NCBI GenBank assembly: GCA_038736825.1
Contig: JAVYME010000021.1
Coordinates: 1 to 23,199 of the forward strand
Direction: 5' to 3'
Length of the DNA: 23,199 nucleotides
Source of the DNA: Candidatus Iainarchaeum sp.
Lineage (GTDB): Archaea; Iainarchaeota; Iainarchaeia; Iainarchaeales; DTGL01
Shown: positions 1,492 through 22,463 of the stretch, one piece after another
Layout of the letters: each line of letters opens with the position of its first letter
Numbering within the stretch: the stretch's first letter is position 1
The notes under the pieces: generated by a model
Databases searched by the model: none
The model's input: the letters and a program-made list of their open reading frames with translations, nothing else
What the model was told of the DNA's origin: nothing
Program-made: the position numbers and the translations under genes

Positions 1492-3204
1492 ATGGCAAAA
1501 AATTTTAAATTTCAGTTTTTGTTAGTTTTCTTGTTTTTTTTACCATTTGTTTTTGGTTGGGGCACTGGAGATGCTTGCGATAATAGTGGGCGTGTTTGTT
1601 GGAATCAAAAATGTGCCTGCCCTGAAGCAGCAATTTGTGACTCTGTTTGTTATGCTATTGGGCCAAATTGTGACGATTTTTGGTGCTTAGGAAAGGATTG
1701 TAGAGTAATGTGGTGTCCTGGAGGGTGCGATGACTCTCAATGTCAAGAGGAACCGCCTTCTTGTACTCAGGAGAATTTGTGCCGGAATGGGAATGTTTGG
1801 CGTTATGATAGTTGTGAGGGCTGGCTTTATGAGGTTCAAAAGTGTGATTCTGTTTCTTGTAGTGCTTGGGTTTGCAATGCTGCTAAGACTGCAAAGCAGC
1901 GAACTTGCACTGGTTCTTGTCAGAACGGGCAATGCACTGGCAGTTCCACTGAAACCGTAAACTGTCCTTTTGGTTGTTTGAATGGTAAGTGTCAACCGAA
2001 GGCGGATTTTTCTGTTTCTCCGCCTGCGCTTGTGCCTGGTTCTACGGTTTTGTTGGATGCTAGTCTTTCTATGGATCCTTATGGTTTGAGTTGTGGGGGT
2101 AGTGCTTGTTTGTCGTATGAATGGTTTTATAATGGGGTTTTTGCTGGCAATTCTAAGACTTTCAATTTGACTTTGTTGCCTGGCAGTCAGCAGTCTATAA
2201 GGTTGAAGGTTGTAACGGTTGGTTTGACTGGGGAGACGCGTTTGCCGGATAATGGTACTACGCACGAATTGACTCGTTCTAGGAATACTGTTATTAATGC
2301 TCCGGATTCTTGCACTTTGCCTTGTAATATAACTATTAATGCGGTTGGCACTACTGATGACAAGTTTGCATCAAACCAGTTGTCTTATAGGTGGGATTAT
2401 GATGGCGATGGAGTGGTTGATGCAACTTTTAATAGTGATGTTCTGCCTGGCGCTTACACTTATGCAAATCCTGGAAGTTTCACTATAAAATTGTCTGTGG
2501 TTAACCCGGATGGAGTGGAGTCTTTTGCTGAAAAGAACATTCAAGTGATTAATAATCCTCCAATTGTTGATTTTGACATGATTCCCAGTCCGCCTACTGG
2601 TTTTATTCCTTTGACTATAAAGTTTGTTAATAAAACTGTTGATCCAGATGGGCATGCTATTTCGAGTTATTTTTGGAGTTTTGGAGATGGGCAGACTAGT
2701 TCTCAAGAGAGTCCCACTCACCAATACAGTATTGAGGGCGAGTATACTGTTACCTTGACTGCCACAGACCAGTTTGGCGCTAGTGGTTCAAAAGATAAAC
2801 TGGTTATAGCCAAACAACAACCACTAATTAGTGGTTTGAAGGCAACCAATCCAAGCGATCCAAGTAAAACTGCTCTTATTACTGTTAATTGCACTAAAAC
2901 TGGAATGCCGACTAAAATTGAAATTTTTGACAAAGACAACAAGTTGCTGCATTCTCTATCAGGAATCTGTGGAAACACAATTACAGCGCCATTGCTGCCT
3001 TCAGGCGTGTACTTGGTGAAGGCAATGATTGTGAATGCAAGCGGAAACCAGCACCCAGATTGCACTAATTGCCCGAAAACAACCAATATAACTGTAGGAA
3101 TGCTGGCACCAGAAATGCAAACCCCAGAAATTCCAGCAATACTAACAGCAATAATAGCGCTTGCAGTGGTTTTGATTACTGGAAGGAAAAAGCATAAGGG
3201 TTAA
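1492..3204 (+). CDS. Secreted cysteine-rich surface protein with three PKD-like domains and a C-terminal transmembrane anchor
   Basis: ORF 1456-3204. I prefer ATG 1492 (MAKNFKFQFLLVFLFFLPFVFG is a signal peptide), and a TATA-like box sits at 1442-1455. There are 24 Cys in the ~145 aa after the signal peptide. PKD signatures are present (LSYRWDYDGDG; YFWSFGDGQTSSQESPTHQYSIEGEYTVTLTATDQFG). The C terminus PEIPAILTAIIALAVVLITGRKKHKG is a TM helix followed by a basic tail. Confidence 0.85.
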   Translation: MAKNFKFQFLLVFLFFLPFVFGWGTGDACDNSGRVCWNQKCACPEAAICDSVCYAIGPNCDDFWCLGKDCRVMWCPGGCDDSQCQEEPPSCTQENLCRNGNVWRYDSCEGWLYEVQKCDSVSCSAWVCNAAKTAKQRTCTGSCQNGQCTGSSTETVNCPFGCLNGKCQPKADFSVSPPALVPGSTVLLDASLSMDPYGLSCGGSACLSYEWFYNGVFAGNSKTFNLTLLPGSQQSIRLKVVTVGLTGETRLPDNGTTHELTRSRNTVINAPDSCTLPCNITINAVGTTDDKFASNQLSYRWDYDGDGVVDATFNSDVLPGAYTYANPGSFTIKLSVVNPDGVESFAEKNIQVINNPPIVDFDMIPSPPTGFIPLTIKFVNKTVDPDGHAISSYFWSFGDGQTSSQESPTHQYSIEGEYTVTLTATDQFGASGSKDKLVIAKQQPLISGLKATNPSDPSKTALITVNCTKTGMPTKIEIFDKDNKLLHSLSGICGNTITAPLLPSGVYLVKAMIVNASGNQHPDCTNCPKTTNITVGMLAPEMQTPEIPAILTAIIALAVVLITGRKKHKG

Positions 3205-3211
3205 GGAATTC

Positions 3212-3222
3212 CTTTTAAAAAT
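3212..3222 (+). promoter_or_regulatory. TATA-box candidate for the permease gene (implies a leaderless or near-leaderless mRNA)
   Basis: CTTTTAAAAAT is centred ~27 nt upstream of ATG 3244, and no Shine-Dalgarno site lies between them. Confidence 0.35.
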
Positions 3223-3243
3223 CCAGCCTTTCTATTTTTTTGT

Positions 3244-4524
3244 ATGCCTTTAAATAGAGCGCTTTCCTTATTGGAATTAACGCTTTGCGGTGTGGGCATT
3301 ATTTTGGGTGCTGGAATTTATGCCCTTATTGGTGCAGGTGCTGCTGTTGCAGGCAATGCTGTTTGGATGAGTTTTGCTTTTGGTGCACTAATTGCAATTC
3401 TTACTGGGCTGAGTTATGCTGAATTGAGTTCCATGTATCCTGAGGCTTCAGCTGAATACGAGTATGTAAGGCGTGCTTTTGGAGAAAAAGCTGCTTTTCT
3501 TGTTGGCTGGCTTGTTATTTTTGCTTCTGTTTTGGGTGCAACCACTGTTGCAATTGGTTTTGGCGGGTATTTTGGTGCTTTTTTTTCCATTTCCTGGATT
3601 TATGGTGCAATCACAATAATTGTTGTTTCTTCAATAATAATCCTTTTAGGCGTGAAATTTTCTGCAAAACTGGGTTCAATAATTACTTTGATTGAGGCAA
3701 GCGGGCTCCTCTTCATAATTTTTTTGGGGGCTCCGCATATTTTCTCTTTTGATTTCACTGAAATTCCATCCATTCAAGGAGTGCTTGGCGGAACCATTAT
3801 TGTCTTTTTTGCATTCCTTGGATTTGAGGAAATGGTTCGATTTTCAGAGGAAACAATTGATTCTAAAAATGTGATGCCAAAAGCGCTCTTGTTGTCCATT
3901 ATTGGTTCCACAATTCTTTACATTCTTGTCTCGGTTTCAGCGGTAAGCATTGCCGGTGCTAAAGCGCTCGCGCAATCTGAAAGCCCGCTTGCAACAGTTG
4001 CTCAAACCGCAATGGGAAGCCAGGCATTCTATTTTCTTTCAATAATAGCGCTTTTTGCCACAGCAAACACGGTTTTATTGGTGTTGCTTGCTGCTTCAAG
4101 GTTATTGTATGGCATTAGCAAGGAAAATGCAATGCCAAAAGCCTTAAGCCTTGTTTCAGCCAATGGAACGCCTTGGGTTGCAGTGATTGCAACTGGTGCT
4201 CTTTCAACAGTGTTTCTTGCAATTGGCACAATAGGTTTTGTGGCAAGCGCAGTGGATTTAGCGCTTTTCATAATTTTCATAATAATAAACCTTTCAATGA
4301 TAAAGCTAAGGTTTTCCCTTCCTGAAAAAGAAAGGCCTTTCAAGGTTCCAATTTCTTTTTTCAAGATTCCATTGCTTTCCGTGGCTGGAATAATCCTTAC
4401 AACAATATTTGTGTTTTCCATTCATGACGTCAAAATATTTGAAACAGTTTTTGTTGTAATAATAACTGGCATAATTGCAATGTTTTTGTTTTCAAAACCG
4501 AAAACCCAAAAGCAAAATATTTAA
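3244..4524 (+). CDS. Amino-acid permease, APC superfamily
   Basis: 426-aa polytopic membrane protein. The N terminus LSLLELTLCGVGIILGAGIYALIGAGA and FAFLGFEE are characteristic of amino acid/polyamine/organocation transporters. Confidence 0.88.
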   Translation: MPLNRALSLLELTLCGVGIILGAGIYALIGAGAAVAGNAVWMSFAFGALIAILTGLSYAELSSMYPEASAEYEYVRRAFGEKAAFLVGWLVIFASVLGATTVAIGFGGYFGAFFSISWIYGAITIIVVSSIIILLGVKFSAKLGSIITLIEASGLLFIIFLGAPHIFSFDFTEIPSIQGVLGGTIIVFFAFLGFEEMVRFSEETIDSKNVMPKALLLSIIGSTILYILVSVSAVSIAGAKALAQSESPLATVAQTAMGSQAFYFLSIIALFATANTVLLVLLAASRLLYGISKENAMPKALSLVSANGTPWVAVIATGALSTVFLAIGTIGFVASAVDLALFIIFIIINLSMIKLRFSLPEKERPFKVPISFFKIPLLSVAGIILTTIFVFSIHDVKIFETVFVVIITGIIAMFLFSKPKTQKQNI

Positions 4525-6385: not shown

Positions 6386-7944
6386 AGGAAATTGTTTTAG
6401 GGGATGAAGCGCTTGCCTTGGGAGCAGTGCATGCCGGCATTTCTGCTGCTTTCGCTTACCCTGGCACTCCAAGCACTGAAATAACCGAATTTCTAATAAA
6501 AAACAGGGAAAAATTCGGCATTCATGCTGAATGGTGCTCTAATGAAAAAACCGCTTTTGAGGCAGCACTCGGGGTTTCTTTTGCTGGAAAAAGAGCGCTT
6601 GTTTCAATGAAGCATGTGGGCTTGAATGTTGCAATGGATGCCTTTGTGAATTCAGCAATTTCCGGAATAAAGGGCGGATTGGTTGTCGCGGTTGCAGACG
6701 ATCCAAGCATGCATTCCTCGCAAAACGAACAGGATTCAAGGCATTTGGCAGAATTTGCAAAAGTTTTCTTTTTTGAGCCGGCAACAGCCCAAGAAGCCTA
6801 TGACATGGCTTTGCAAGCCTTTGACTTGTCTGAAAAACTCGGCATTCCAGTGTCAATTCGCTTGGTGACAAGGCTTTCGCATGCAAGGGAAAGCATTAAT
6901 ACTGCAAAGCAAAGAAAGCAAAACGAGTTGGATGCAAGAATGGCGTGCAAGGAATGGGTTTTATTGCCTGGAAACGCGCGAACCCAATTCCAAAAACTTT
7001 TGGAAAAGCAAGCCCTGCTTTTAAGAGAATCTGAAAAAAGCAAGTTCAACCAGTCAAGGAAACGCAAGGGAAAAAAATGCATTGTATGCGCTGGAAATGC
7101 CTGCAATTATTTTTTTGAATTGGGTTCAAAAATTTCTTTTTTTAAGATTTCAACCTATCCCTTGCCTGAAAAAAAAATCAAAAAATTTCTTTCAACCTTT
7201 AAGGAAATCCTTGTATTGGAGGAAGGCTGTCCATATATAGAGGAAAAAATTCGCTCCATAGTGGACTGGAAAACCAAAAAAATCACTGGAAAGCTTTCAG
7301 GGCACATTCCCTTAACAGGCGAACTGACTCCGGAAAAAACCAAAAAAGCCCTTGGAATAAAAATAATGCAATCCATTAAAGTAAAAATTACCCTTCCTTT
7401 AAGGCCGCCACAGTTTTGCGCTGGCTGTCCGCATGCAGACTTGTATCGTGCACTAAATGAAGCAAAAAATGATTCAAAAATAATGGTTTTTGGAGACATT
7501 GGCTGTTACACTTTGGGTGCACTGCCACCATTCACTGCAATAGGCTCTTGCATTTGCATGGGTTCTGCCGTAAACCTTGCGCGCGGAGCATCAATAGCTG
7601 GAGCAGAGCCAGCTGTTGGCGTTATAGGTGATTCCACTTTTGTGCATGGCGGAATGCCTGCACTTGTTGAAGCTGCAAAGCACAACAACAACATTAAACT
7701 TGTCATTCTTGACAATGGCACTGTGGCAATGACTGGCGGGCAGGAAACAATGGTTAAAGGCGATTCCTTGAGCGAGTTGGTTGCAGGGCTTGGCGTTCCA
7801 AGGGAGAGAATCCGCATAATAGAGCCATTGCCTGCAAAACACGAAGAAAACGTGAAAATTTTAAGGGAAGAATTTTCACATAAAGGAATTTCAGTCATAA
7901 TTTCCAGGCGTGCATGCATTCAATCCTTGAAAAAAGGGGTTTAA
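6382..7944 (+). CDS. iorA: Indolepyruvate:ferredoxin oxidoreductase alpha subunit, short form without a ferredoxin-type domain
   Basis: 520 aa. The N terminus LGDEALALGAVHAGISAAFAYPGTPSTEI is typical, as are FCAGCPHADLY and the TPP-binding segment GDIGCYT...GDSTFVHGGMPALV...ILDN. It is followed immediately by iorB (TAAATG). Confidence 0.85.
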   Translation: MKEIVLGDEALALGAVHAGISAAFAYPGTPSTEITEFLIKNREKFGIHAEWCSNEKTAFEAALGVSFAGKRALVSMKHVGLNVAMDAFVNSAISGIKGGLVVAVADDPSMHSSQNEQDSRHLAEFAKVFFFEPATAQEAYDMALQAFDLSEKLGIPVSIRLVTRLSHARESINTAKQRKQNELDARMACKEWVLLPGNARTQFQKLLEKQALLLRESEKSKFNQSRKRKGKKCIVCAGNACNYFFELGSKISFFKISTYPLPEKKIKKFLSTFKEILVLEEGCPYIEEKIRSIVDWKTKKITGKLSGHIPLTGELTPEKTKKALGIKIMQSIKVKITLPLRPPQFCAGCPHADLYRALNEAKNDSKIMVFGDIGCYTLGALPPFTAIGSCICMGSAVNLARGASIAGAEPAVGVIGDSTFVHGGMPALVEAAKHNNNIKLVILDNGTVAMTGGQETMVKGDSLSELVAGLGVPRERIRIIEPLPAKHEENVKILREEFSHKGISVIISRRACIQSLKKGV

Positions 7945-12812: not shown

Positions 12813-15488
12813 GTGAACCAAGAACAACTAAAAAAACTCTTCAACCCGCAATCCATTGCAGTAATAGGCGCAAGCAACACCCCCGGCAGCGTTGGCTTGG
12901 CATTAATGAAAAACCTGGTTGGCTCAGGCTTTGAAGGAACAATCTTTCCAGTAAACCCAAAAAGAAAAAACGTTATGGGAATCCACTGCTATAAAAGCGT
13001 GCAAGAAATACCTGAAACACCGGAAATGGCAATAATAGCAATTCCAGCAATTGCAGTGCCATCAATAGTAAAAGAATGCATTGCAAAAGGAACCAAAGCC
13101 TTTGTGGTTTTAAGCGCTGGCTTTGGAGAAATCGGCGAAGACGGAAAAAAAATAGAACTAGAACTAAAAAAAATAATTGACGAAAACAATTGCGCTCTCT
13201 TGGGACCAAACTGTTTGGGTTTCATAAGACCAGACATAAAACTCAACGCAAGCTTTGCCACAAGAAACGCTTTACCTGGAAAAATAGCCTTAATAAGCCA
13301 GAGTGGCGCCCTATGCTCTGGAATCCTTGACTGGGCTTTAAAACAAGAGGTTGGCTTCAAATACTTTATCTCGGTTGGCGCAATGATTGACATCGGCTTT
13401 TCCGACCTAATAGACTTTTTCTCCTCAGACCCAGAAGTGCAATGCATTGTAATGTATGTTGAAACAATAAAAAACGCAAGAAAATTCATGAGCGCAGCAA
13501 GAGCCTTTTCCAGGAGCAGGCCAATAATTGTAGCCAAATCAGGAAAATACGGTGAAAGCGCCAAAGCAGCAATATCCCACACTGGTTCCATGGCTGGAAA
13601 CAGCGAGGTTTTTGACGCTGCCTTCAAGCGCGCAGGCATAATCCGTGTAGACACAATATTAGACATGTTCAATTGCTCTGAAGCACTGGCAAAACTGCCA
13701 TTGCCAAAAGGCAACAGGCTGGCAGTTGTAACAAACGCTGGCGGTCCAGGCGTAATGGCTGCAGATGCAATAATAGAAAACAAGTGCAGGCTTGCAAAAC
13801 TTTCACCGAAAGCAATGGCAGAACTGGAAAAAGAAATGCCAATGCATTGGAGCAGAAACAATCCAGTGGACATTTTAGGCGACTCTTTGCCTCCACGCTA
13901 TGGCAAAGCCTTGGAAATAATCGCGAGAGAAGAAGAGGTTGACGGCATAATAGTCATTTTTGCCCCTCAAGCAATATCCGAACCACTGGAAACAGCAAAA
14001 ACCGTCATAGAAGTCTGCAAAAAATACAACAAGCCAGTGCTTGCAGCATGGATGGGGGAAAGCTTTGTAGACGAAGCAAGAGAATATTTTAGAAAAAACA
14101 ATGTGCCAGACTATAGCACTCCAGAAGAAGCAGTAAAAGTCTTCAGCTACCTGTACTCTTACTCTGAAAACAGAAAACTCTTATACGAAACCCCAAAAGA
14201 AATACCCCTTAAAGTGAAAAAAGACAGCGCCCTAATAAAAAAAATAATCTCTTCCTATAAAAAAAACCACATTCCTGTAATGAACGAAAACGATTCCAAA
14301 AAAATCCTTGCACAATACGGTCTTCCAGTCAACGAAACCCTTTTCGCAAAAACCGCAAAAGAAGCAGTAAAAAACGCCAAAAAAATCGGTTTTCCGGTTG
14401 CAATGAAAATCTCCTCCAAAAAAATAACACACAAAACCGATGTAGGCGGAATAGAATTAAACCTTTTAACCGAAAGCGCAGTCATAAAAGCATTCCATGG
14501 ATTAAAAAAAAGAGTAAAAGAAAAAACAGGCATTTCAATAGAAGGAGTAAGCATACAACAAATGGTGAAATCAACAGGGCCGGAAGTGATAATTGGGGCA
14601 AGCAGAGACCCAATATTTGGCTCCATCATTCTTTTCGGGGCAGGCGGAATATCAGTGGAACTCTATAAAGACAAAGCCATTGCATTGCCACCATTAGACC
14701 AAACCCTTGCAAAGAACTTGATTGAGGAAACAAAAGTCAGCAAAATGTTGAAAGGCTTTAGAGGAAAGCCCCCGGTTAACATGCCAGAACTTGAAAGGAT
14801 TTTAGTGCATTTTTCCAAGCTGGTTGTAGACTATCCTGAAATAAAAGAAGTGGACTTGAATCCAGTGATTCCCTCAGAAGACAAACTGTTTGTAGTGGAT
14901 GCAAGAATTGTGCTGGACTTGGAATTTGAAAAAACAGAGCAAAACAAGTTTTCACATCTTGCAATAATGCCCTATCCAGAACACTTGACAAAAGAAGTAA
15001 GGCTCTTGAACGGAGCAAAAGTCAAATTGCGCGCAATAATGCCAGAAGACGAGCCAAGGCACCTTGCAATGCTGAGAAAGTTTTCCCCAAAAACAGTAAG
15101 GCAAAGGTTTTTCCACATGGTGCGAGACTGGGACCACGAAGCACTCATAAGGTATTGCTTTAACGATTACGACCGAGAAATAGCAATTGTGGCTGAAAGA
15201 GGCAAAGGCGAGCAAAGGGAATTGCTTGGAGTTGTAAGAATAATGAGCGATCCAGGAAAAAACACAGCAGAATTCGCAATAGTTGTCACAGATGAATGGC
15301 AAAGAAAAGGCTTGGGCACAATAATGTTGCGATACATAATGGACATTGCAAGGCAAAAAGGGCTTTCCAAAATCTGGGGGCACGTATTAGTGGACAACGC
15401 AGAACTAGTCAGCATTTTGCACAAAGAAAAATTCTCCTTTTCAACCTCAGAAGACAAGGGAGTGTACTATGTTGAAAAACCCTTATAA
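12813..15488 (+). CDS. ADP-forming acetyl/acyl-CoA synthetase (fused alpha-beta) with a C-terminal GNAT acetyltransferase domain (Pat/YfiQ-like architecture)
   Basis: 891 aa from GTG 12813, preceded by AGGTG. It has a CoA-binding N terminus (LFNPQSIAVIGASNTPGSVG), a phosphohistidine-loop motif SHTGSMAG (His codon at 13578-13580), an ATP-grasp region (GFPVAMKISS..ITHKTDVGGIELNL) and GNAT motif A (VTDEWQRKGLGTIML). Confidence 0.9.
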   Translation: MNQEQLKKLFNPQSIAVIGASNTPGSVGLALMKNLVGSGFEGTIFPVNPKRKNVMGIHCYKSVQEIPETPEMAIIAIPAIAVPSIVKECIAKGTKAFVVLSAGFGEIGEDGKKIELELKKIIDENNCALLGPNCLGFIRPDIKLNASFATRNALPGKIALISQSGALCSGILDWALKQEVGFKYFISVGAMIDIGFSDLIDFFSSDPEVQCIVMYVETIKNARKFMSAARAFSRSRPIIVAKSGKYGESAKAAISHTGSMAGNSEVFDAAFKRAGIIRVDTILDMFNCSEALAKLPLPKGNRLAVVTNAGGPGVMAADAIIENKCRLAKLSPKAMAELEKEMPMHWSRNNPVDILGDSLPPRYGKALEIIAREEEVDGIIVIFAPQAISEPLETAKTVIEVCKKYNKPVLAAWMGESFVDEAREYFRKNNVPDYSTPEEAVKVFSYLYSYSENRKLLYETPKEIPLKVKKDSALIKKIISSYKKNHIPVMNENDSKKILAQYGLPVNETLFAKTAKEAVKNAKKIGFPVAMKISSKKITHKTDVGGIELNLLTESAVIKAFHGLKKRVKEKTGISIEGVSIQQMVKSTGPEVIIGASRDPIFGSIILFGAGGISVELYKDKAIALPPLDQTLAKNLIEETKVSKMLKGFRGKPPVNMPELERILVHFSKLVVDYPEIKEVDLNPVIPSEDKLFVVDARIVLDLEFEKTEQNKFSHLAIMPYPEHLTKEVRLLNGAKVKLRAIMPEDEPRHLAMLRKFSPKTVRQRFFHMVRDWDHEALIRYCFNDYDREIAIVAERGKGEQRELLGVVRIMSDPGKNTAEFAIVVTDEWQRKGLGTIMLRYIMDIARQKGLSKIWGHVLVDNAELVSILHKEKFSFSTSEDKGVYYVEKPL

Positions 15489-17591: not shown

Positions 17592-17699
17592 GATTCCACC
17601 CCTTAAACAACCAAACAATGAAATGAAAGTGTGAAACGCAATCAATAAAAGAGTATGGCAAGGGTTTTTTATTTAATAGTTGCTTTTTTTTGGGATAAA

Positions 17700-18866
17700 A
17701 TGACTGGAAAATTTTTAGTGTTATCATTTCTGCTTTTCGCTTTATGTGTTGCAAGCGCAGCAAACATGGTTATTGCGCCTTCTGTGGCTTTGGAAGATGG
17801 CAACATAAATGTTGTCATATTTTATGGCAGGGAGTGCCCGCACTGTCATAAGGCTTTAACGCTTCTTGAAGAGCTTGCAGTGAAAAACCCTGCAATAAAA
17901 ATTGAAAAAATTGAAACCTGGCATTCACCAGAAAACTATCAATTGTTTAGGGAAACATTACAAAAATACGGTTATGATCCAAACCGCCCTGGAGTGCCAT
18001 TCATTATAATAGAAGACCAAATCATAGAAGGCTATAACCCTGAAAAAATAAGGGCTGCAATTGTTGCTTGCGGACTTTCTTTAGACCAAAACCAGCAATG
18101 TGTTGATGAAAACCTTCCCCAAACAGTCAACCTTTTGTTTTTTGGACCAATTGACATTAGGGGTTTTTCGCTTCCAATGCTTTCCATTGTGCTTGGCCTT
18201 GCTGATGGATTCAATCCATGTGCTATGTGGGTTTTAATATACCTTATATCGCTCATGGTGGTAACTGATGACAAGAAAAAAATATTGTTGTTGGCTGGCA
18301 CTTTTGTTTTTGCCTCTGGTGTTCTTTATTTTCTTTTTTTGACTGCATGGCTGAATCTTTTCCTTTTCATTGGTTTTTTGACTCCAGTGCAAATTGCAGT
18401 GGGCATTGTGGCATTAATCACTGGTGCAATGCACTTGAAAACGCATTTGTCTAAAAAAGAGGCAAAATGTGAAGTTACAACTGACAAGCAGAAAAGAAAA
18501 ATCATTGACCGCATAAATGCAATGTCCAAGCAAGCGATTGTGCCAGCCACTTTTCTTGGAATTGTTTTTCTTGCATTCACTGTAAACTTGATAGAATTTG
18601 TTTGCTCTGCAGGCATTCCAGCGGTTTTCACCAAAATCCTTGCAGCCAAAAACCTTTCCATGATAGAATATTATTTTTACATTCTCTTGTACGATTTGGC
18701 TTTCATGTTTGATGACCTTATTATTTTTGGAGGTGCTGCGCTTACATTGCAATACACTGATTTTTCACACAAATATGCTCGCATTGGCGGCATCATTGGC
18801 GGCATTCTCTTGATTGTTCTTGGCATAATTCTGATTTTCTTTCCAAGCGCTCTTGCAGCCATTTAG
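17700..18866 (+). CDS. Membrane thiol:disulfide oxidoreductase candidate: exported thioredoxin-fold domain (CPHC) fused to a DsbD/CcdA-like polytopic domain
   Basis: ORF 17655-18866. I prefer ATG 17700 because a TATA-like TTTTATTTAATA lies 12-25 nt upstream and MTGKFLVLSFLLFALCVASA is a signal peptide. FYGRECPHCHKA is a Trx/Grx-fold CxxC (17835-17846). The membrane part carries LGLADGFNPCAMW and EFVCSAGIP, single cysteines in separate helices as in DsbD-superfamily proteins. Confidence 0.68.
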   Translation: MTGKFLVLSFLLFALCVASAANMVIAPSVALEDGNINVVIFYGRECPHCHKALTLLEELAVKNPAIKIEKIETWHSPENYQLFRETLQKYGYDPNRPGVPFIIIEDQIIEGYNPEKIRAAIVACGLSLDQNQQCVDENLPQTVNLLFFGPIDIRGFSLPMLSIVLGLADGFNPCAMWVLIYLISLMVVTDDKKKILLLAGTFVFASGVLYFLFLTAWLNLFLFIGFLTPVQIAVGIVALITGAMHLKTHLSKKEAKCEVTTDKQKRKIIDRINAMSKQAIVPATFLGIVFLAFTVNLIEFVCSAGIPAVFTKILAAKNLSMIEYYFYILLYDLAFMFDDLIIFGGAALTLQYTDFSHKYARIGGIIGGILLIVLGIILIFFPSALAAI

Positions 18867-18940: not shown

Positions 18941-19513
18941 ATGGTTGACTTGAAGGCGAACCCTGCGCCTTTGGGCTTGATGGGGTTTGGAATGACTACA
19001 ATATTGTTGAATTTGCATAATGCTGGATTGTTTGGCTTGGGTTCCATGATTTTGGGAATGGGCATATTTTATGGAGGCTTAGCCCAAATAATTGCTGGAA
19101 TAATGGAATTCAAGAATGGCAACACTTTTGGCACAGTTGCATTCACTTCCTATGGGCTTTTCTGGCTTTCACTTGTTGCCATTTGGGCAATTCCAAAATT
19201 TTCTTGGGGTACTTCTTTTGCAAACACGCCAGTCGCAATAGGCTTTTACTTGCTTTGCTGGGGTGTTTTCACTTTAATGATGTTTTTTGGCACTCTTAAA
19301 ACCAACAGGGTTTTGCAGTTTGTTTTCGCTTCACTTGCATTGCTTTTCTTTTTGCTTGCAATAGGCGATTTCACTGGAAACAAAGTGATAACCCAAATTG
19401 CGGGCATTGAAGGCATAATATGTGGTGCTTCTGCATTCTATCTTGCAATGGCGGAAGTTTTAAACCTTCAAGCAGGCAAAACTGTTTTGCCAGTGTTTCC
19501 AGTAAAAAAATAG
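18941..19513 (+). CDS. GPR1/FUN34/YaaH family acetate (short-chain carboxylate) channel
   Basis: 190 aa with six hydrophobic helices and the N-terminal family signature [29 protein letters not shown] lies 8 nt upstream of the ATG. Confidence 0.88.
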
Positions 19514-19561
19514 GAAAGACGGCTTGCCTTCCTTTCTATTTTTACTTTTTTTTCTTTTTTT
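19514..19561 (+). terminator. Imperfect hairpin plus oligo-T tract between convergent genes (candidate bidirectional terminator)
   Basis: GAAAG(19514-19518)/CTTTC(19532-36) and GGC/GCC pairings are followed by TATTTTTACTTTTTTTTCTTTTTTTT. On the minus strand the same tract encodes the poly-Lys end of the 196-aa ORF, and an A7 run at 19504-19510 gives a T-tract for the minus-strand gene. Confidence 0.3.
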
Positions 19562-20132
19562 CTAATCCGCCAAAGTCCAGCAAAAGCGCCACACACTTTT
19601 TTTCTTTTGAATCAAAAAAGGGTTCAAATTTGTCACGCCAAAAATTAGCAGTATAGCCTTCCCTTTCAAGAATCAGCGCTTGCCGCTCCATGTCCTCCAA
19701 GAACTGCGCTTTTTCTTTTTCTGACAATTCAGCCGTTTTCCTTAACCCTTGGCTTTGCCCATCCTTATGCCAGGAAAGCAACAGCCTTGGATTTTCATTT
19801 TTTCCCCTTAAAAGCCTTACTGTTGCCGGCAGCCTCAACCCAAGCCTTTTCTTTTTATTCAATTCAATTAATTCCCTTATAATTTCAAATTGTGGTTTAG
19901 GATGCCGCATGTTGGTGTAATAATCTCCAACTTCTCTTGCAAAAAATTCTTTTACTGCAAACCCCCTTGAGCGCTCGCGCTTTCCATTCCTGCTTTTGAC
20001 AGAAAAACGCACTCCATAAACATTGCCTTCAACCCCCCTGCCAAGAAAAACCTTTTCAGGCTCTTCAAAAACCCAAGTGCCCTTGTGATCCTTTTTTTCT
20101 GCAAAAACCCTTCTCCTTCCGCGAACAGGCAT
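19542..20132 (-). CDS. Small protein-kinase-like ORF that ends shortly after the DFG motif (function unknown)
   Basis: ORF 19542-20135; ATG at 20132. In order it has GRGVEGNV (GxGxxGxV), FAVK (AxK), an EIIRELIEL helix, WRDKFEPFF at the catalytic-loop position, and LLLDFGG 19 residues later, then GLEKKKKK and the stop. Confidence 0.6.
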   Translation of the reverse strand: MPVRGRRRVFAEKKDHKGTWVFEEPEKVFLGRGVEGNVYGVRFSVKSRNGKRERSRGFAVKEFFAREVGDYYTNMRHPKPQFEIIRELIELNKKKRLGLRLPATVRLLRGKNENPRLLLSWHKDGQSQGLRKTAELSEKEKAQFLEDMERQALILEREGYTANFWRDKFEPFFDSKEKKCVALLLDFGGLEKKKKK

Positions 20133-20166
20133 CAAAACACCAGAATAGAATTACTAGCATTTCATA

Positions 20167-21303
20167 TTAAATAGGTTGGCAAAAATCGCTGATTCTTGCC
20201 TGTCTTTCTTTTTCCAATTGCAGGAATGGCATTGCCTTTTGCAAAACCACTCCATATCGTTTCAAGTCTTTGAATTCTTGAAACCTTTCACCGTTTTGCT
20301 TTGCCAATTCAATTTTTTCCACTGTTTTCAAGCCAATGCCTGGCACTCTCAAGAGTTCTTCTTTTTTGGCATTGTTTGGGTTGACTGGAAACCTTTCAAG
20401 GGAATTCAATGCAATTGCAAGTTTTGGGTCTTTTTCAAGGGAAAGCATTCCCTTTTCATTCAATGCCATTTTTAATTCTTTTAATTTAAAACCATACACT
20501 CTTAAAAGCCAGTCTGACTGGTACAAGCGGTGTTCTCTTAATGGGTTTTCGCCTTTTTTGTTTTCCAGTCCAGTTCCTTTTACAGGCGAAAAAGCGGAAA
20601 AATAAGAGCGCCACAAAAAAGTTTTTTCATACAAGGAATTCATTTTTGATAAAACTTCCAAATCGGTTTCACCGGCTGCACCCAAAATGAATTGAGTGGT
20701 GAAACTTATGCGAAAGCCCTTTTTGCGCGCTACATTAATCCATTCCAGTCTTTTTTCCAAATCTTTAAAGTAATCCTTTGTTGAACCCAATTCTGAAAAG
20801 CGTTGTGCTGACGGCGCTTCAATGTTTAAGGAAAGCCTGTCAGCATATTTTGCCATTTCAAAAATTTTGTCTTTTGACATTCCAGGCAATACTTTTAAGT
20901 GAATGTATCCTTGAAAGCGCTTTTCCTGCCTTAAAATGCGCGCGCTTTCAATCATTTTTTCAGCAGTAGAATCAGCATTTCTTGTAACAGCGGAACTCAA
21001 AAAAAGCCCTTCCACAAAACCCTTTCTTGCAAGCAAAGAAAAAGACTCTGCAATCTCTTTGGGTTCAAGCTCCTTCTTTAAACCATTAGAAATAGAGTTA
21101 ACACAGTATTTGCAATCATGAATGCACTTGTTGGATTGCAACACCTTCATCAAGCGGCATTTTTCGCTTGTTGCAGCACAATCCTGAATGAAGGGCGAGA
21201 ACTCCAAGGGAATGCCTGCCTTCCTGAAACTCTTTTGCTTTACTCCACCGCAAGAATCCCATGAAGCAGCAATGCCAAGCACTTGCAATTTTTGCAACAA
21301 CAT
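20167..21303 (-). CDS. Radical SAM protein with a C-terminal helix-hairpin-helix domain ('putative DNA modification/repair radical SAM' family, TIGR03916-like)
   Basis: 378 aa. The N-terminal ASWDSCGG patch, the CIHDCKYC CxxxCxxC triad (21103-21126) and the C-terminal LLRVPGIGLKTVEKIELAKQNG (HhH) are present. A TATA-containing palindrome is centred 27 nt upstream of ATG 21303. Confidence 0.82.
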   Translation of the reverse strand: MLLQKLQVLGIAASWDSCGGVKQKSFRKAGIPLEFSPFIQDCAATSEKCRLMKVLQSNKCIHDCKYCVNSISNGLKKELEPKEIAESFSLLARKGFVEGLFLSSAVTRNADSTAEKMIESARILRQEKRFQGYIHLKVLPGMSKDKIFEMAKYADRLSLNIEAPSAQRFSELGSTKDYFKDLEKRLEWINVARKKGFRISFTTQFILGAAGETDLEVLSKMNSLYEKTFLWRSYFSAFSPVKGTGLENKKGENPLREHRLYQSDWLLRVYGFKLKELKMALNEKGMLSLEKDPKLAIALNSLERFPVNPNNAKKEELLRVPGIGLKTVEKIELAKQNGERFQEFKDLKRYGVVLQKAMPFLQLEKERQARISDFCQPI

Positions 21304-21321
21304 GAAAAAAATGTGGTTTTT

Positions 21322-21338
21322 GCGCTTTTAAAAAGCGC
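21322..21338. promoter_or_regulatory. 17-nt perfect palindrome GCGCTTTTAAAAAGCGC containing a TATA-like core (promoter and/or operator of the radical SAM gene)
   Basis: 8-nt arms GCGCTTTT/AAAAGCGC flank a single central A. It is centred at 21330, 27 nt upstream of ATG 21303 (minus strand), in the 108-nt divergent intergenic region. Confidence 0.4.
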
Positions 21339-21380
21339 GAGGGCTGGTTTCCGCTGAAAATCACATAATTGAAAAAAAAG

Positions 21381-21391
21381 TAATATATTTA
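21381..21391 (+). promoter_or_regulatory. TATA-box candidate for the GNAT-like gene
   Basis: TAATATATTTA is centred ~26 nt upstream of ATG 21412, with no Shine-Dalgarno site in between. This suggests a leaderless mRNA. Confidence 0.35.
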
Positions 21392-21411
21392 GGTAAGCAA
21401 ATTATTTGTTT

Positions 21412-22197
21412 ATGCCTCTTAGGTTGAGGGTTCCAAGGATTTTGCGCTTAAAACCTTGGATTGGAAGAAACAAGGTGGCAAAAAACCTGCCAGCAAATGC
21501 CTTTGAACTGGCATTGAGTGCAGCAGAGCTCTGCCGCTCGCAAAGCATTCTTGTCACTGAGCCTTCTTTGAGAAACGCAATAGCCGAACTGGCAAGAAAA
21601 AGAAAGGTTTCAATTGAAGCCCTGCCACATCTTGAAATAAGCGATGACCTGGTAAGGCGCCTGCAGCTTTTGAACCTTTATGCCAAGCAAAGAACGCCGG
21701 AAATGAGGAAAATCCACGGGCGCGTGAAAAAGGAAGACTTAAAGGCATGCCTTTCATTCCTAGAAAAATTCAAGGAAGACGGGTTTGCCTTCCTTGCTGG
21801 CACAAAATACGAAAGCAGCATAGGCATAATCGCCATCGATCCAAATGGAAACACTTTTGGGACAATCAAACTTAATTTTTTGGGCAAAAAAAGAAAAGTG
21901 CTCTGCATTGACGCAATCCAAGGCTCGCGAGGCAGAACAATGGCATTGTGGAAAACCAACACTGGACAAATCCCTTGGCCTAACCTGTTAGTCCAGCATG
22001 CAATAGAAACAGCAAGGCGCGCTGGCTTTTCAGAGGTTAGGCTGCTTAAGCCACAAGCAAATCCTTGGTGCAAGGATTATTATAATAAAAAAAACACAAA
22101 AGTAACTGTTTCAATGGAAAGGCTTTATTACTCTGTGGCAAAAAAGGAAGGCTTTAGGAAAGCAAAGGGAAAATTCTTTGTTCTCTATCTAACCTAA
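21412..22197 (+). CDS. Hypothetical protein with a GNAT-like (acyl-CoA N-acyltransferase) C-terminal half
   Basis: ORF 21406-22197; ATG at 21412. The C-terminal VLCIDAIQGSRGRT...WPNLLVQHAIETARRAGFSEVRLL..QANPW...RLYYSVAKKEGFRK follows the GNAT beta4-alphaA-beta5-alphaB pattern. I do not recognise the N-terminal ~130 aa, which is helical and Arg/Lys-rich. Confidence 0.55.
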   Translation: MPLRLRVPRILRLKPWIGRNKVAKNLPANAFELALSAAELCRSQSILVTEPSLRNAIAELARKRKVSIEALPHLEISDDLVRRLQLLNLYAKQRTPEMRKIHGRVKKEDLKACLSFLEKFKEDGFAFLAGTKYESSIGIIAIDPNGNTFGTIKLNFLGKKRKVLCIDAIQGSRGRTMALWKTNTGQIPWPNLLVQHAIETARRAGFSEVRLLKPQANPWCKDYYNKKNTKVTVSMERLYYSVAKKEGFRKAKGKFFVLYLT

Positions 22198-22348: not shown

Positions 22349-22375
22349 CCCTTTGCAACTCCTTTTTCTTTCAAT

Positions 22376-22447
22376 GCCCCCATAGTATAGTGGATAGCAC
22401 GCCGGCTTCCGGAGCCGGAAACCAGGGTTCAAATCCCTGTGGGGGCA
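22376..22447 (+). tRNA. tRNA-Arg (anticodon CCG), 72 nt, no encoded CCA, no intron
   Basis: I folded the cloverleaf manually. The acceptor stem GCCCCCA/TGGGGGC has 7 bp, plus discriminator A. The anticodon stem is CCGGC/GCCGG with loop TTCCGGA (anticodon CCG). The variable loop is AAAC. The T arm is CAGGG-TTCAAAT-CCCTG. The D arm is GTAT-AGTGGATA-GCAC with one A12-C23 mismatch. Confidence 0.9.
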
Positions 22448-22463
22448 ATCTTGTTTTTATTAA

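Follow-up and report, generated by a model that had tools for sequence, protein, structure and literature searches.

A DPANN-clade radical-SAM/helix-hairpin-helix gene of the TIGR03916 type, its missing DUF4130 neighbour and its incidental-looking flanking genes

Does a radical S-adenosylmethionine (SAM) gene flanked by two unannotated neighbours belong with them to a conserved system, or does it stand on its own? The question is raised by a locus on a 23,199-bp contig, the whole of which is called the window here, from a metagenome-assembled genome (MAG) of Candidatus Diapherotrites (Iainarchaeia, DPANN). The locus comprises a gene for an enzyme with a radical-SAM core and a C-terminal helix-hairpin-helix (HhH), referred to as rSAM, together with a downstream open reading frame (ORF) on the same strand, k197, and a divergent upstream ORF, g263 (the two flanking ORFs are QXK06_04240 and QXK06_04250 in NCBI). 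An earlier note on this DNA proposed that the trio could form an uncharacterised nucleic-acid modification, repair or defence module. Its placement of the ORFs, their motifs, the MP[V/L]R openings and basic N termini of both flanking ORFs, and a nearby tRNA-Arg was reproduced by our ORF calls, by ARAGORN and by inspection of the sequence. The module itself fared differently. The analysis presented here favours rSAM as a stand-alone DNA-directed enzyme from a DPANN branch of the TIGR03916-type family, where the flanking genes are not parts of a conserved system, and we place the probability of this reading at roughly 0.6.

A TIGR03916-like enzyme in a clade lacking adjacent DUF4130

The rSAM protein is identical to the NCBI entry 'MAG: radical SAM protein [Candidatus Diapherotrites archaeon]' (P0006). 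Pfam assigns it Radical_SAM (2.3e-14) and HHH_3 (1.6e-6) domains, and the TIGR03916 model (rSAM_link_UDG) aligns end to end over residues 3-368 with an E value of 1.3e-86. The TIGR03916 likeness recognized in the earlier note therefore extends over the full length of the protein, but the score of 291.3 bits falls below the curated NCBIfam cutoff of 343.5. Inspection of 35 relatives reveals that the three cysteines of the CxxxCxxC motif (C60, C64 and C67), which are the predicted ligands of a SAM-binding [4Fe-4S] cluster, are unchanged throughout, and that D16 and C18 of the N-terminal WDSCGG patch are invariant, with G19 nearly so. A profile of the family matches the ComEA HhH domains in structures 2duy and 8dss; when run against the Protein Data Bank (PDB), it found no solved structure of the family itself. 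Homologues number in the thousands. The nearest 50, of about 375 aa and with 54-79% identity, come from Iainarchaeia/Diapherotrites wherever the source is named. Judged by its sequence, the window rSAM is a DPANN-clade relative of the TIGR03916 family, which is itself known but uncharacterised.

In bacteria, the canonical rSAM-DUF4130 pair is tied to the SOS/DNA-damage response (PMC3765255; PMC12392091). The pair and its family are biochemically uncharacterised, and in a 2026 preprint the two proteins are predicted to form a tight complex, with DUF4130 binding nucleic acid or conferring specificity but having no catalytic role (bioRxiv 10.64898/2026.08.19.745780). The earlier note saw no such partner in the window, and this observation stands: no DUF4130 or uracil-DNA glycosylase (UDG) gene came up there when every major ORF was scanned against Pfam and all six frames were searched with a hidden Markov model (HMM) of DUF4130.

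To place this absence in context, neighbourhoods were assembled for 80 loci from GTDB species representatives and others, for which ORFs were called and clustered. One cluster, c1, was verified as DUF4130/TIGR03915 by Pfam and NCBIfam. In 30 loci DUF4130 lies directly downstream of rSAM on the same strand, where the bearers are Asgard, Thermoplasmata, Methanothrix, Methanofastidiosa, Nanoarchaeota, Undinarchaeota, Margulisiibacteriota and WOR-1, and the six-frame HMM search, run on every locus and on the complete window, added nothing to these 30 cases. A neighbour-joining tree of 83 rSAM loci, built without support values, places the window rSAM in a clade with Iainarchaeia, Micrarchaeota and other uncultured DPANN. 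Within this clade DUF4130 follows rSAM at 0 of the 36 loci that have 700 nt or more of sequence downstream, in contrast to 30 of 43 loci elsewhere. Lack of the adjacent partner is therefore a trait of the clade and not an oddity of the window locus. The TIGR03916 scores divide along the same line as the presence or absence of DUF4130. Three tested rSAM proteins with DUF4130 downstream score 392, 375 and 329 bits, two of them passing 343.5, whereas the partner-less proteins score 291 (window), 283, 280, 263 and 244 bits.

Comparison with known systems helps to frame what such an enzyme may do. The window protein shares with members of the TIGR03916 pair the N-terminal Cys patch, the CxxxCxxC motif, a partial TIM-barrel rSAM core and the C-terminal HhH. 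It differs from them in being shorter (378 aa against about 400-415 aa), in scoring under the family cutoff and in having no DUF4130/UDG at its locus, as at the 36 informative loci of its clade. A second comparison is with spore photoproduct lyase (SplB) and SplB-like DNA repair proteins, likewise radical-SAM enzymes, where action on DNA is presumed for the window protein and its extra conserved Cys could, by analogy, donate hydrogen. In contrast, no spore photoproduct lyase family model matched the window rSAM in the NCBIfam scan, and spore photoproduct lyases lack the C-terminal ComEA-like HhH.

These features can be assembled into a proposed mechanism. C60, C64 and C67 would hold the [4Fe-4S] cluster, which would reductively cleave SAM to yield a 5'-deoxyadenosyl radical, with the ComEA-like (HhH)2 domain gripping DNA non-specifically. 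The radical may then, as spore photoproduct lyase does, abstract a hydrogen from a damaged or target nucleotide, and the invariant Cys18 is a candidate hydrogen donor or second ligand. The DPANN-branch enzyme would work without an adjacent DUF4130 (TIGR03915) subunit. Of its neighbours in the window, k197 would be a minimal kinase-like protein, probably co-transcribed with rSAM, and g263 a putative GNAT-like orphan transcribed divergently.

Neighbours within the partner-less clade vary, with a ZIP transporter present in several Iainarchaeia. In all 5 Micrarchaeota loci (L024, L029, L031, L035 and L037), endonuclease III (HhH-GPD, Fe-S) is convergent with rSAM, and the 3' ends of the two genes abut or overlap by a few bases (at about 7100-7770 in loci with 6-kb flanks). 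A DPANN subclade (L028, L030, L032, L036, L040 and L049) encodes a longer rSAM of roughly 450 aa, with a ~70-aa insertion after the N-terminal Cys patch; in these 6 loci SAM synthetase (MetK) lies at most 2 genes downstream on the opposite strand, and in 4 it is immediately convergent. The endonuclease III and SAM synthetase contexts fit an enzyme combining DNA-base and SAM chemistry, yet they are not operonic.

The flanking genes and their linkage to rSAM

Whether the trio is a unit was addressed through relatives of each gene. The nearest relatives of the window rSAM, in L004/L007 (79% identity) and L008 (78%), are followed by the same downstream order of YaaH, a thioredoxin-like membrane protein, aIF5A and deoxyhypusine synthase, with synteny in L004/L007 extending as far as a Pat-like acetyltransferase; despite this synteny, k197 and g263 are missing from both. 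At the k197 position L004/L007 has a 51-nt spacer, and L008 has two paralogous class-I SAM methyltransferase genes (2532-3942, minus strand) with basic 'MPVK/MPVN' N termini. The gap between rSAM and YaaH holds three contents in three close genomes, namely k197, two methyltransferases or nothing, and the 3' flank of rSAM is a variable spot whose content differs among close relatives. Genes upstream of rSAM in the nearest relatives are also unrelated to those of the window. Two clusters of such upstream genes, c34 and c83, were considered as diverged forms of g263 or k197 and rejected, as no similarity was detected. The contig carrying the g263 homologue has no rSAM, and the three genes together recur in 0 of the 97 loci examined. 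The earlier note had itself held that a lack of conserved linkage in other genomes would speak against the trio, and such a lack is what these comparisons reveal.

Contexts of k197 found independently of rSAM provide a separate view. Among the seven with usable flanks, two are associated with rSAM (the window and L001) and five are not (L087, L089, L092/L093, L094 and L096). Neighbours in those five include a Zn-ribbon gene, aIF2alpha-PAC2, a DEAD helicase with RNA polymerase genes, and FtsZ with PyrBI. The association in L001 involves a frameshifted 3' remnant of rSAM at L001:985-1166, covering the HhH and C terminus (64% identical over 36 aa), with a Top1-type Zn-ribbon gene on one side and an intact homologue of k197 on the other. 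L087 has the same layout of Zn-ribbon gene then k197, with no rSAM remnant left. The order of rSAM then k197 is old within the subgroup, yet in L001 k197 was kept as rSAM decayed, which argues against an obligate partnership. Taken with the absence of both genes from syntenic relatives, the flanking genes look like real but incidental, lineage-restricted neighbours and not parts of a conserved system.

Most k197-family genes examined are set among housekeeping genes. One lies directly upstream of pyrB-pyrI in both L094 and L096, and another follows aIF2alpha-PAC2 in L089. GNAT genes adjoin k197-family genes in L028:8930-10372, L032:8987-12061 and L087:3860-5437, as the GNAT-like g263 lies near k197 in the window; the three GNATs have no detectable orthology to g263 or to one another, and the pattern may be coincidence.

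What, then, are the two flanking proteins? Neither matches Pfam, NCBIfam or PADLOC, and in PHROG each reaches only families of unknown function at E ~0.1. The k197 protein has 197 aa if translation begins at a TTG and 196 aa if it begins at the ATG at 20132, as in the NCBI annotation; depending on that choice, 31 or 34 nt separate the gene from the rSAM stop. A Shine-Dalgarno-like GGTG at 20138-20141 lies 5 nt ahead of the ATG, and this element together with the 34-nt spacer indicates that rSAM and k197 are probably co-transcribed in the window genome. A word-based search returned only two close homologues of k197, and a metagenome scan with a 3-sequence alignment returned no relatives. With E<=1e-3 as the threshold, a HMMER search of 1.84 billion representatives recovered a family of 139 clusters, defined at 50% identity; a threshold of E<=1e-10 leaves 108. 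Most are of 170-240 aa (relatives P0126-P0262, loci L087-L097). A pattern from a 15-sequence subset found 5 k197 loci, none with rSAM (the alignment of 63 sequences was too diverse). On sequence grounds, k197 defines an unannotated archaeal family that is absent from Pfam.

Motifs of this family are LGxGxEGxV, LAEKxF, NPxxQF...LN+xKKLGLR+xPT+RL and D-F-G, where E36, G37, K62, D187 and G189 are at least 90% conserved in 63 members. The k197 chain stops 8-10 residues past DFG. N termini in the family often read MP.L.GG+K, with MP the commonest start (45 of the 140 sequences recovered). The AlphaFold2 (AF2) model is of low confidence, with a predicted local distance difference test score (pLDDT) of 62 and a predicted template-modelling (TM) score of 0.64. 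Even so, the top 50 PDB matches that Foldseek returned for this model are all protein kinases, among them IRE1, TTBK1, DAPK and RIOK2, at E values of about 3e-3 and TM scores of 0.40-0.46. In contrast, kinase family models (Pkinase, RIO1, Kdo and APH) do not match k197, the 63 family members reach Pfam only at noise level (one RIO1 at 0.039, one Kdo at 0.054), and family profiles run against PDB sequences matched no kinase. RIO/Bud32-type kinases were sought as a profile-profile control, and the fetched loci contain none. The order of elements in k197, namely GxGxEGxV, A-x-K, a helix, a conserved D and DFG, fits that of small atypical kinases such as RIO and Bud32 and of the wider kinase-like fold; unlike kinases, k197 has no HxDxxxxN catalytic-loop Asn and most of its C-lobe is gone. 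The predicted fold weakly suggests a minimal kinase-like ATP-binding protein missing most of the C-lobe.

The divergent gene g263 starts 108 nt from rSAM and is predicted to encode a helical N-terminal region of ~120 aa, after which the C-terminal half (about residues 128-261, nt 21787-22188) is GNAT-like. Its sole homologue found is P0005, with 46% identity across the C-terminal 60%. The AF2 model is better than that of k197 (pLDDT 71), and Foldseek aligns it with GNAT domains of KKT23, NatD, Elp3 and GCN5 at E values of 4e-4 to 1e-2 and a probability of about 1.0, with low TM scores. GNAT models of Pfam do not match g263, even when the C-terminal half is isolated, and the canonical Q/RxxGxG/A acetyl-CoA loop is not evident in its sequence. 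The predicted beta-sheet/helix arrangement of the C-terminal half resembles that of GNATs (NatD/Naa40, GCN5 and the Elp3 KAT), in contrast to the unrelated helical domain that precedes it, and this modelled resemblance lends g263 a weakly supported GNAT-like assignment. The kinase-like and GNAT-like guesses of the earlier note are thereby partly sustained, by predicted folds to a weak degree, with no sequence family model matching either protein.

Both flanking proteins were also considered as diverged DUF4130/UDG partners, which would have made the locus an instance of the known pair. Comparison by hhalign with a 20-sequence DUF4130 profile ruled this out, with probabilities of 0.3% for k197 and 0.7% for g263. 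Neither protein has a Pfam or NCBIfam match to DUF4130 at E<=1.

Several points weigh against rSAM as a stand-alone enzyme with incidental neighbours. In the window k197 adjoins rSAM, and in L001 it adjoins the rSAM remnant; L028 and L032 have distant relatives of k197 downstream of rSAM, at 2.3 and 4.1 kb; and the 34-nt spacing with its GGTG suggests co-expression. Searches for DUF4130 covered loci and not whole genomes, so a distant copy is possible, and the tree that delimits the clade is a crude one, having no support values. Mechanism and substrate are pure inference, as no family member has been characterised.

The alternative that survives best, though we regard it as unlikely, is that the flanks of rSAM form a strain-variable hot spot in which small, lineage-specific enzymes with basic N-terminal tails accumulate. 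Functionally independent of rSAM, these enzymes, namely k197, g263 and the L008 and L001 methyltransferases, would have a common target in the cell, for instance a nucleic acid or a ribosome-like particle. The three contents of the rSAM-YaaH gap accord with this proposal, as does the methyltransferase adjoining the k197 homologue in L001 (75-521, minus strand), which is 41% identical to those of L008, and as do the basic, MP-starting N termini common to k197, g263 and the methyltransferases and frequent in the k197 family. Basic N termini are, however, common in general, and no shared motif has been demonstrated; the sample is three or four genomes, mobility genes are lacking, and the contig breaks that several of these genomes share near rSAM are perhaps trivial.

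Decidedly unlikely in our estimation is k197 as the true partner of rSAM, acting as a nucleotide- or nucleic-acid-binding accessory subunit in place of DUF4130. k197 occupies the position that DUF4130 holds in 30 loci, directly downstream on the same strand, and is of similar size (197 against 144-247 aa). The short spacer and its GGTG would suit such a pair, as would the same gene order in L001, which is about 47% diverged, and the distant family members within 4.1 kb of rSAM in L028 and L032. Set against these are the absence of k197 from this position in L004/L007, L008 and all other Iainarchaeia loci, the intact k197 beside a decayed rSAM in L001 and beside none in L087, the five of seven rSAM-independent contexts without rSAM, and the lack of homology to DUF4130. 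L028 and L032 were moreover retrieved via rSAM, and their proximity carries that ascertainment bias.

A more specific version holds that a ~190-aa 'half-kinase' family, consisting of an N-lobe and ending at DFG, was recruited as an rSAM accessory subunit in some DPANN lacking DUF4130. We rate it as highly doubtful. If true, the window and L001 would keep the operon form of a half-kinase/rSAM pairing, and L028 and L032 a loosened form, and the case would be one of non-homologous partner replacement in an uncharacterised DNA repair or modification system.

Surrounding sequence and other features of the contig

Features of the locus are collected in Table 1. Outside the trio, Pfam scans of the major ORFs indicate that the window holds ordinary metabolism and housekeeping genes, including a permease, an aminotransferase, a 2-oxoacid:ferredoxin oxidoreductase, a Na/Pi transporter, a CoA ligase, a Pat-like acetyltransferase, MarC, deoxyhypusine synthase and aIF5A. 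The Pat-like gene (window 12813-15488, plus strand) encodes an 891-aa fusion of Pat-type architecture, in which an acyl-CoA synthetase-like (ADP-forming) part with CoA_binding, Succ_CoA_lig and ATP-grasp_5 domains is joined to a C-terminal GNAT; the gene is kept in the syntenic relative L004. A 403-aa membrane protein (window 17655-18866, plus strand) carries a glutaredoxin/thioredoxin-like CxxC domain at its N terminus. It belongs to cluster c7, which is found near rSAM in several Iainarchaeia loci (L004/L007, L008, L019, L021 and L048).

Table 1. Coordinates of features at the rSAM locus (nt of the window)
Feature	Position	Strand	Basis
7-bp hairpin between convergent k197 and YaaH	19512..19533	.	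sequence
k197, 196/197 aa, kinase-like predicted fold	19542..20135	-	ORF; AF2 + Foldseek
rSAM-k197 spacer, 34 nt, to ATG	20133..20166	-	sequence
Radical-SAM/HhH enzyme gene, 378 aa	20167..21303	-	ORF; Pfam Radical_SAM + HHH_3; TIGR03916
C-terminal ComEA-like HhH DNA-binding region, residues 307-350	20254..20385	-	Pfam HHH_3
CxxxCxxC motif, C60-I-H-D-C64-K-Y-C67	21103..21126	-	sequence; invariant Cys
N-terminal WDSCGG patch, residues 15-20	21244..21261	-	sequence
Perfect 8+1+8 palindrome GCGCTTTTAAAAAGCGC	21322..21338	.	sequence; centred 27 nt upstream of rSAM ATG
g263, 261/263-aa orphan, divergent	21406/21412..22197	+	ORF; AF2 + Foldseek
tRNA-Arg (CCG)	22375..22448	+	ARAGORN
CBS-domain (MgtE-like) gene, 5' part, cut at contig end	22605..23199	+	translation; Pfam CBS 6e-16

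Two non-coding elements border the coding sequences. The hairpin at the left edge had been read as a convergent terminator. Its placement is sensible for that role, but such sites are no commoner than in shuffled sequence, where 5.1 +/- 2.7 hairpins are expected in the region against 7 found. Upstream of rSAM, the palindrome GCGCTTTTAAAAAGCGC may be a TATA-like element (the TATA box of a leaderless transcript) or the site of an operator or regulator. To the right of the tRNA, what had appeared to be a gene remnant is the intact 5' part of a CBS-domain gene, truncated by the assembly, and the hint of accessory DNA drawn from this orphan fragment is a contig-end artefact.

In three MAGs (window, L007 and L008) the contig breaks off 1.4-1.9 kb upstream of where rSAM begins, each time with different gene content, which suggests a strain-variable or assembly-breaking region.

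Searches bearing on defence or mobility gave the following. PADLOC-DB v2 matched none of the three proteins at E<=1, which leaves the proposed defence module without backing; PHROG gave weak radical-SAM-domain matches or matches at E ~0.1 only; scans of viral contigs for g263 and k197 were empty; and no integrase was found, with only chance-level short matches as bounding repeats or att-like tRNA duplication. That the trio was acquired near tRNA-Arg as an island for nucleic-acid modification or for defence against viruses is a view that can draw on the clustering of three enzyme-like genes beside a tRNA, the differing gene content of both rSAM flanks among close relatives and the three broken contigs, but it is the most improbable of all in light of these negative searches, of a G+C content that is flat across the window (0.38-0.43), of the vertical conservation of rSAM across DPANN in varied core contexts and of the failure of the trio to recur.

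Implications for the radical-SAM family and for k197

As the three-gene module is unsupported, the locus needs no new system category. What is new is modest and, we believe, defensible, namely a DPANN-wide TIGR03916-like branch without adjacent DUF4130 and an unannotated archaeal family of minimal kinase-like proteins. A separate family description may be warranted for k197 and its relatives.

The broader interest lies with rSAM. Widespread and linked to the DNA-damage response, the TIGR03916/DUF4130 module is chemically uncharacterised, and a large archaeal clade that retains rSAM without adjacent DUF4130 offers a simpler, one-protein target for biochemistry. Because rSAM is kept in this clade without the adjacent partner, the finding suggests that the radical-SAM protein can be catalytically self-sufficient, in which case DUF4130 would be an accessory or specificity factor.

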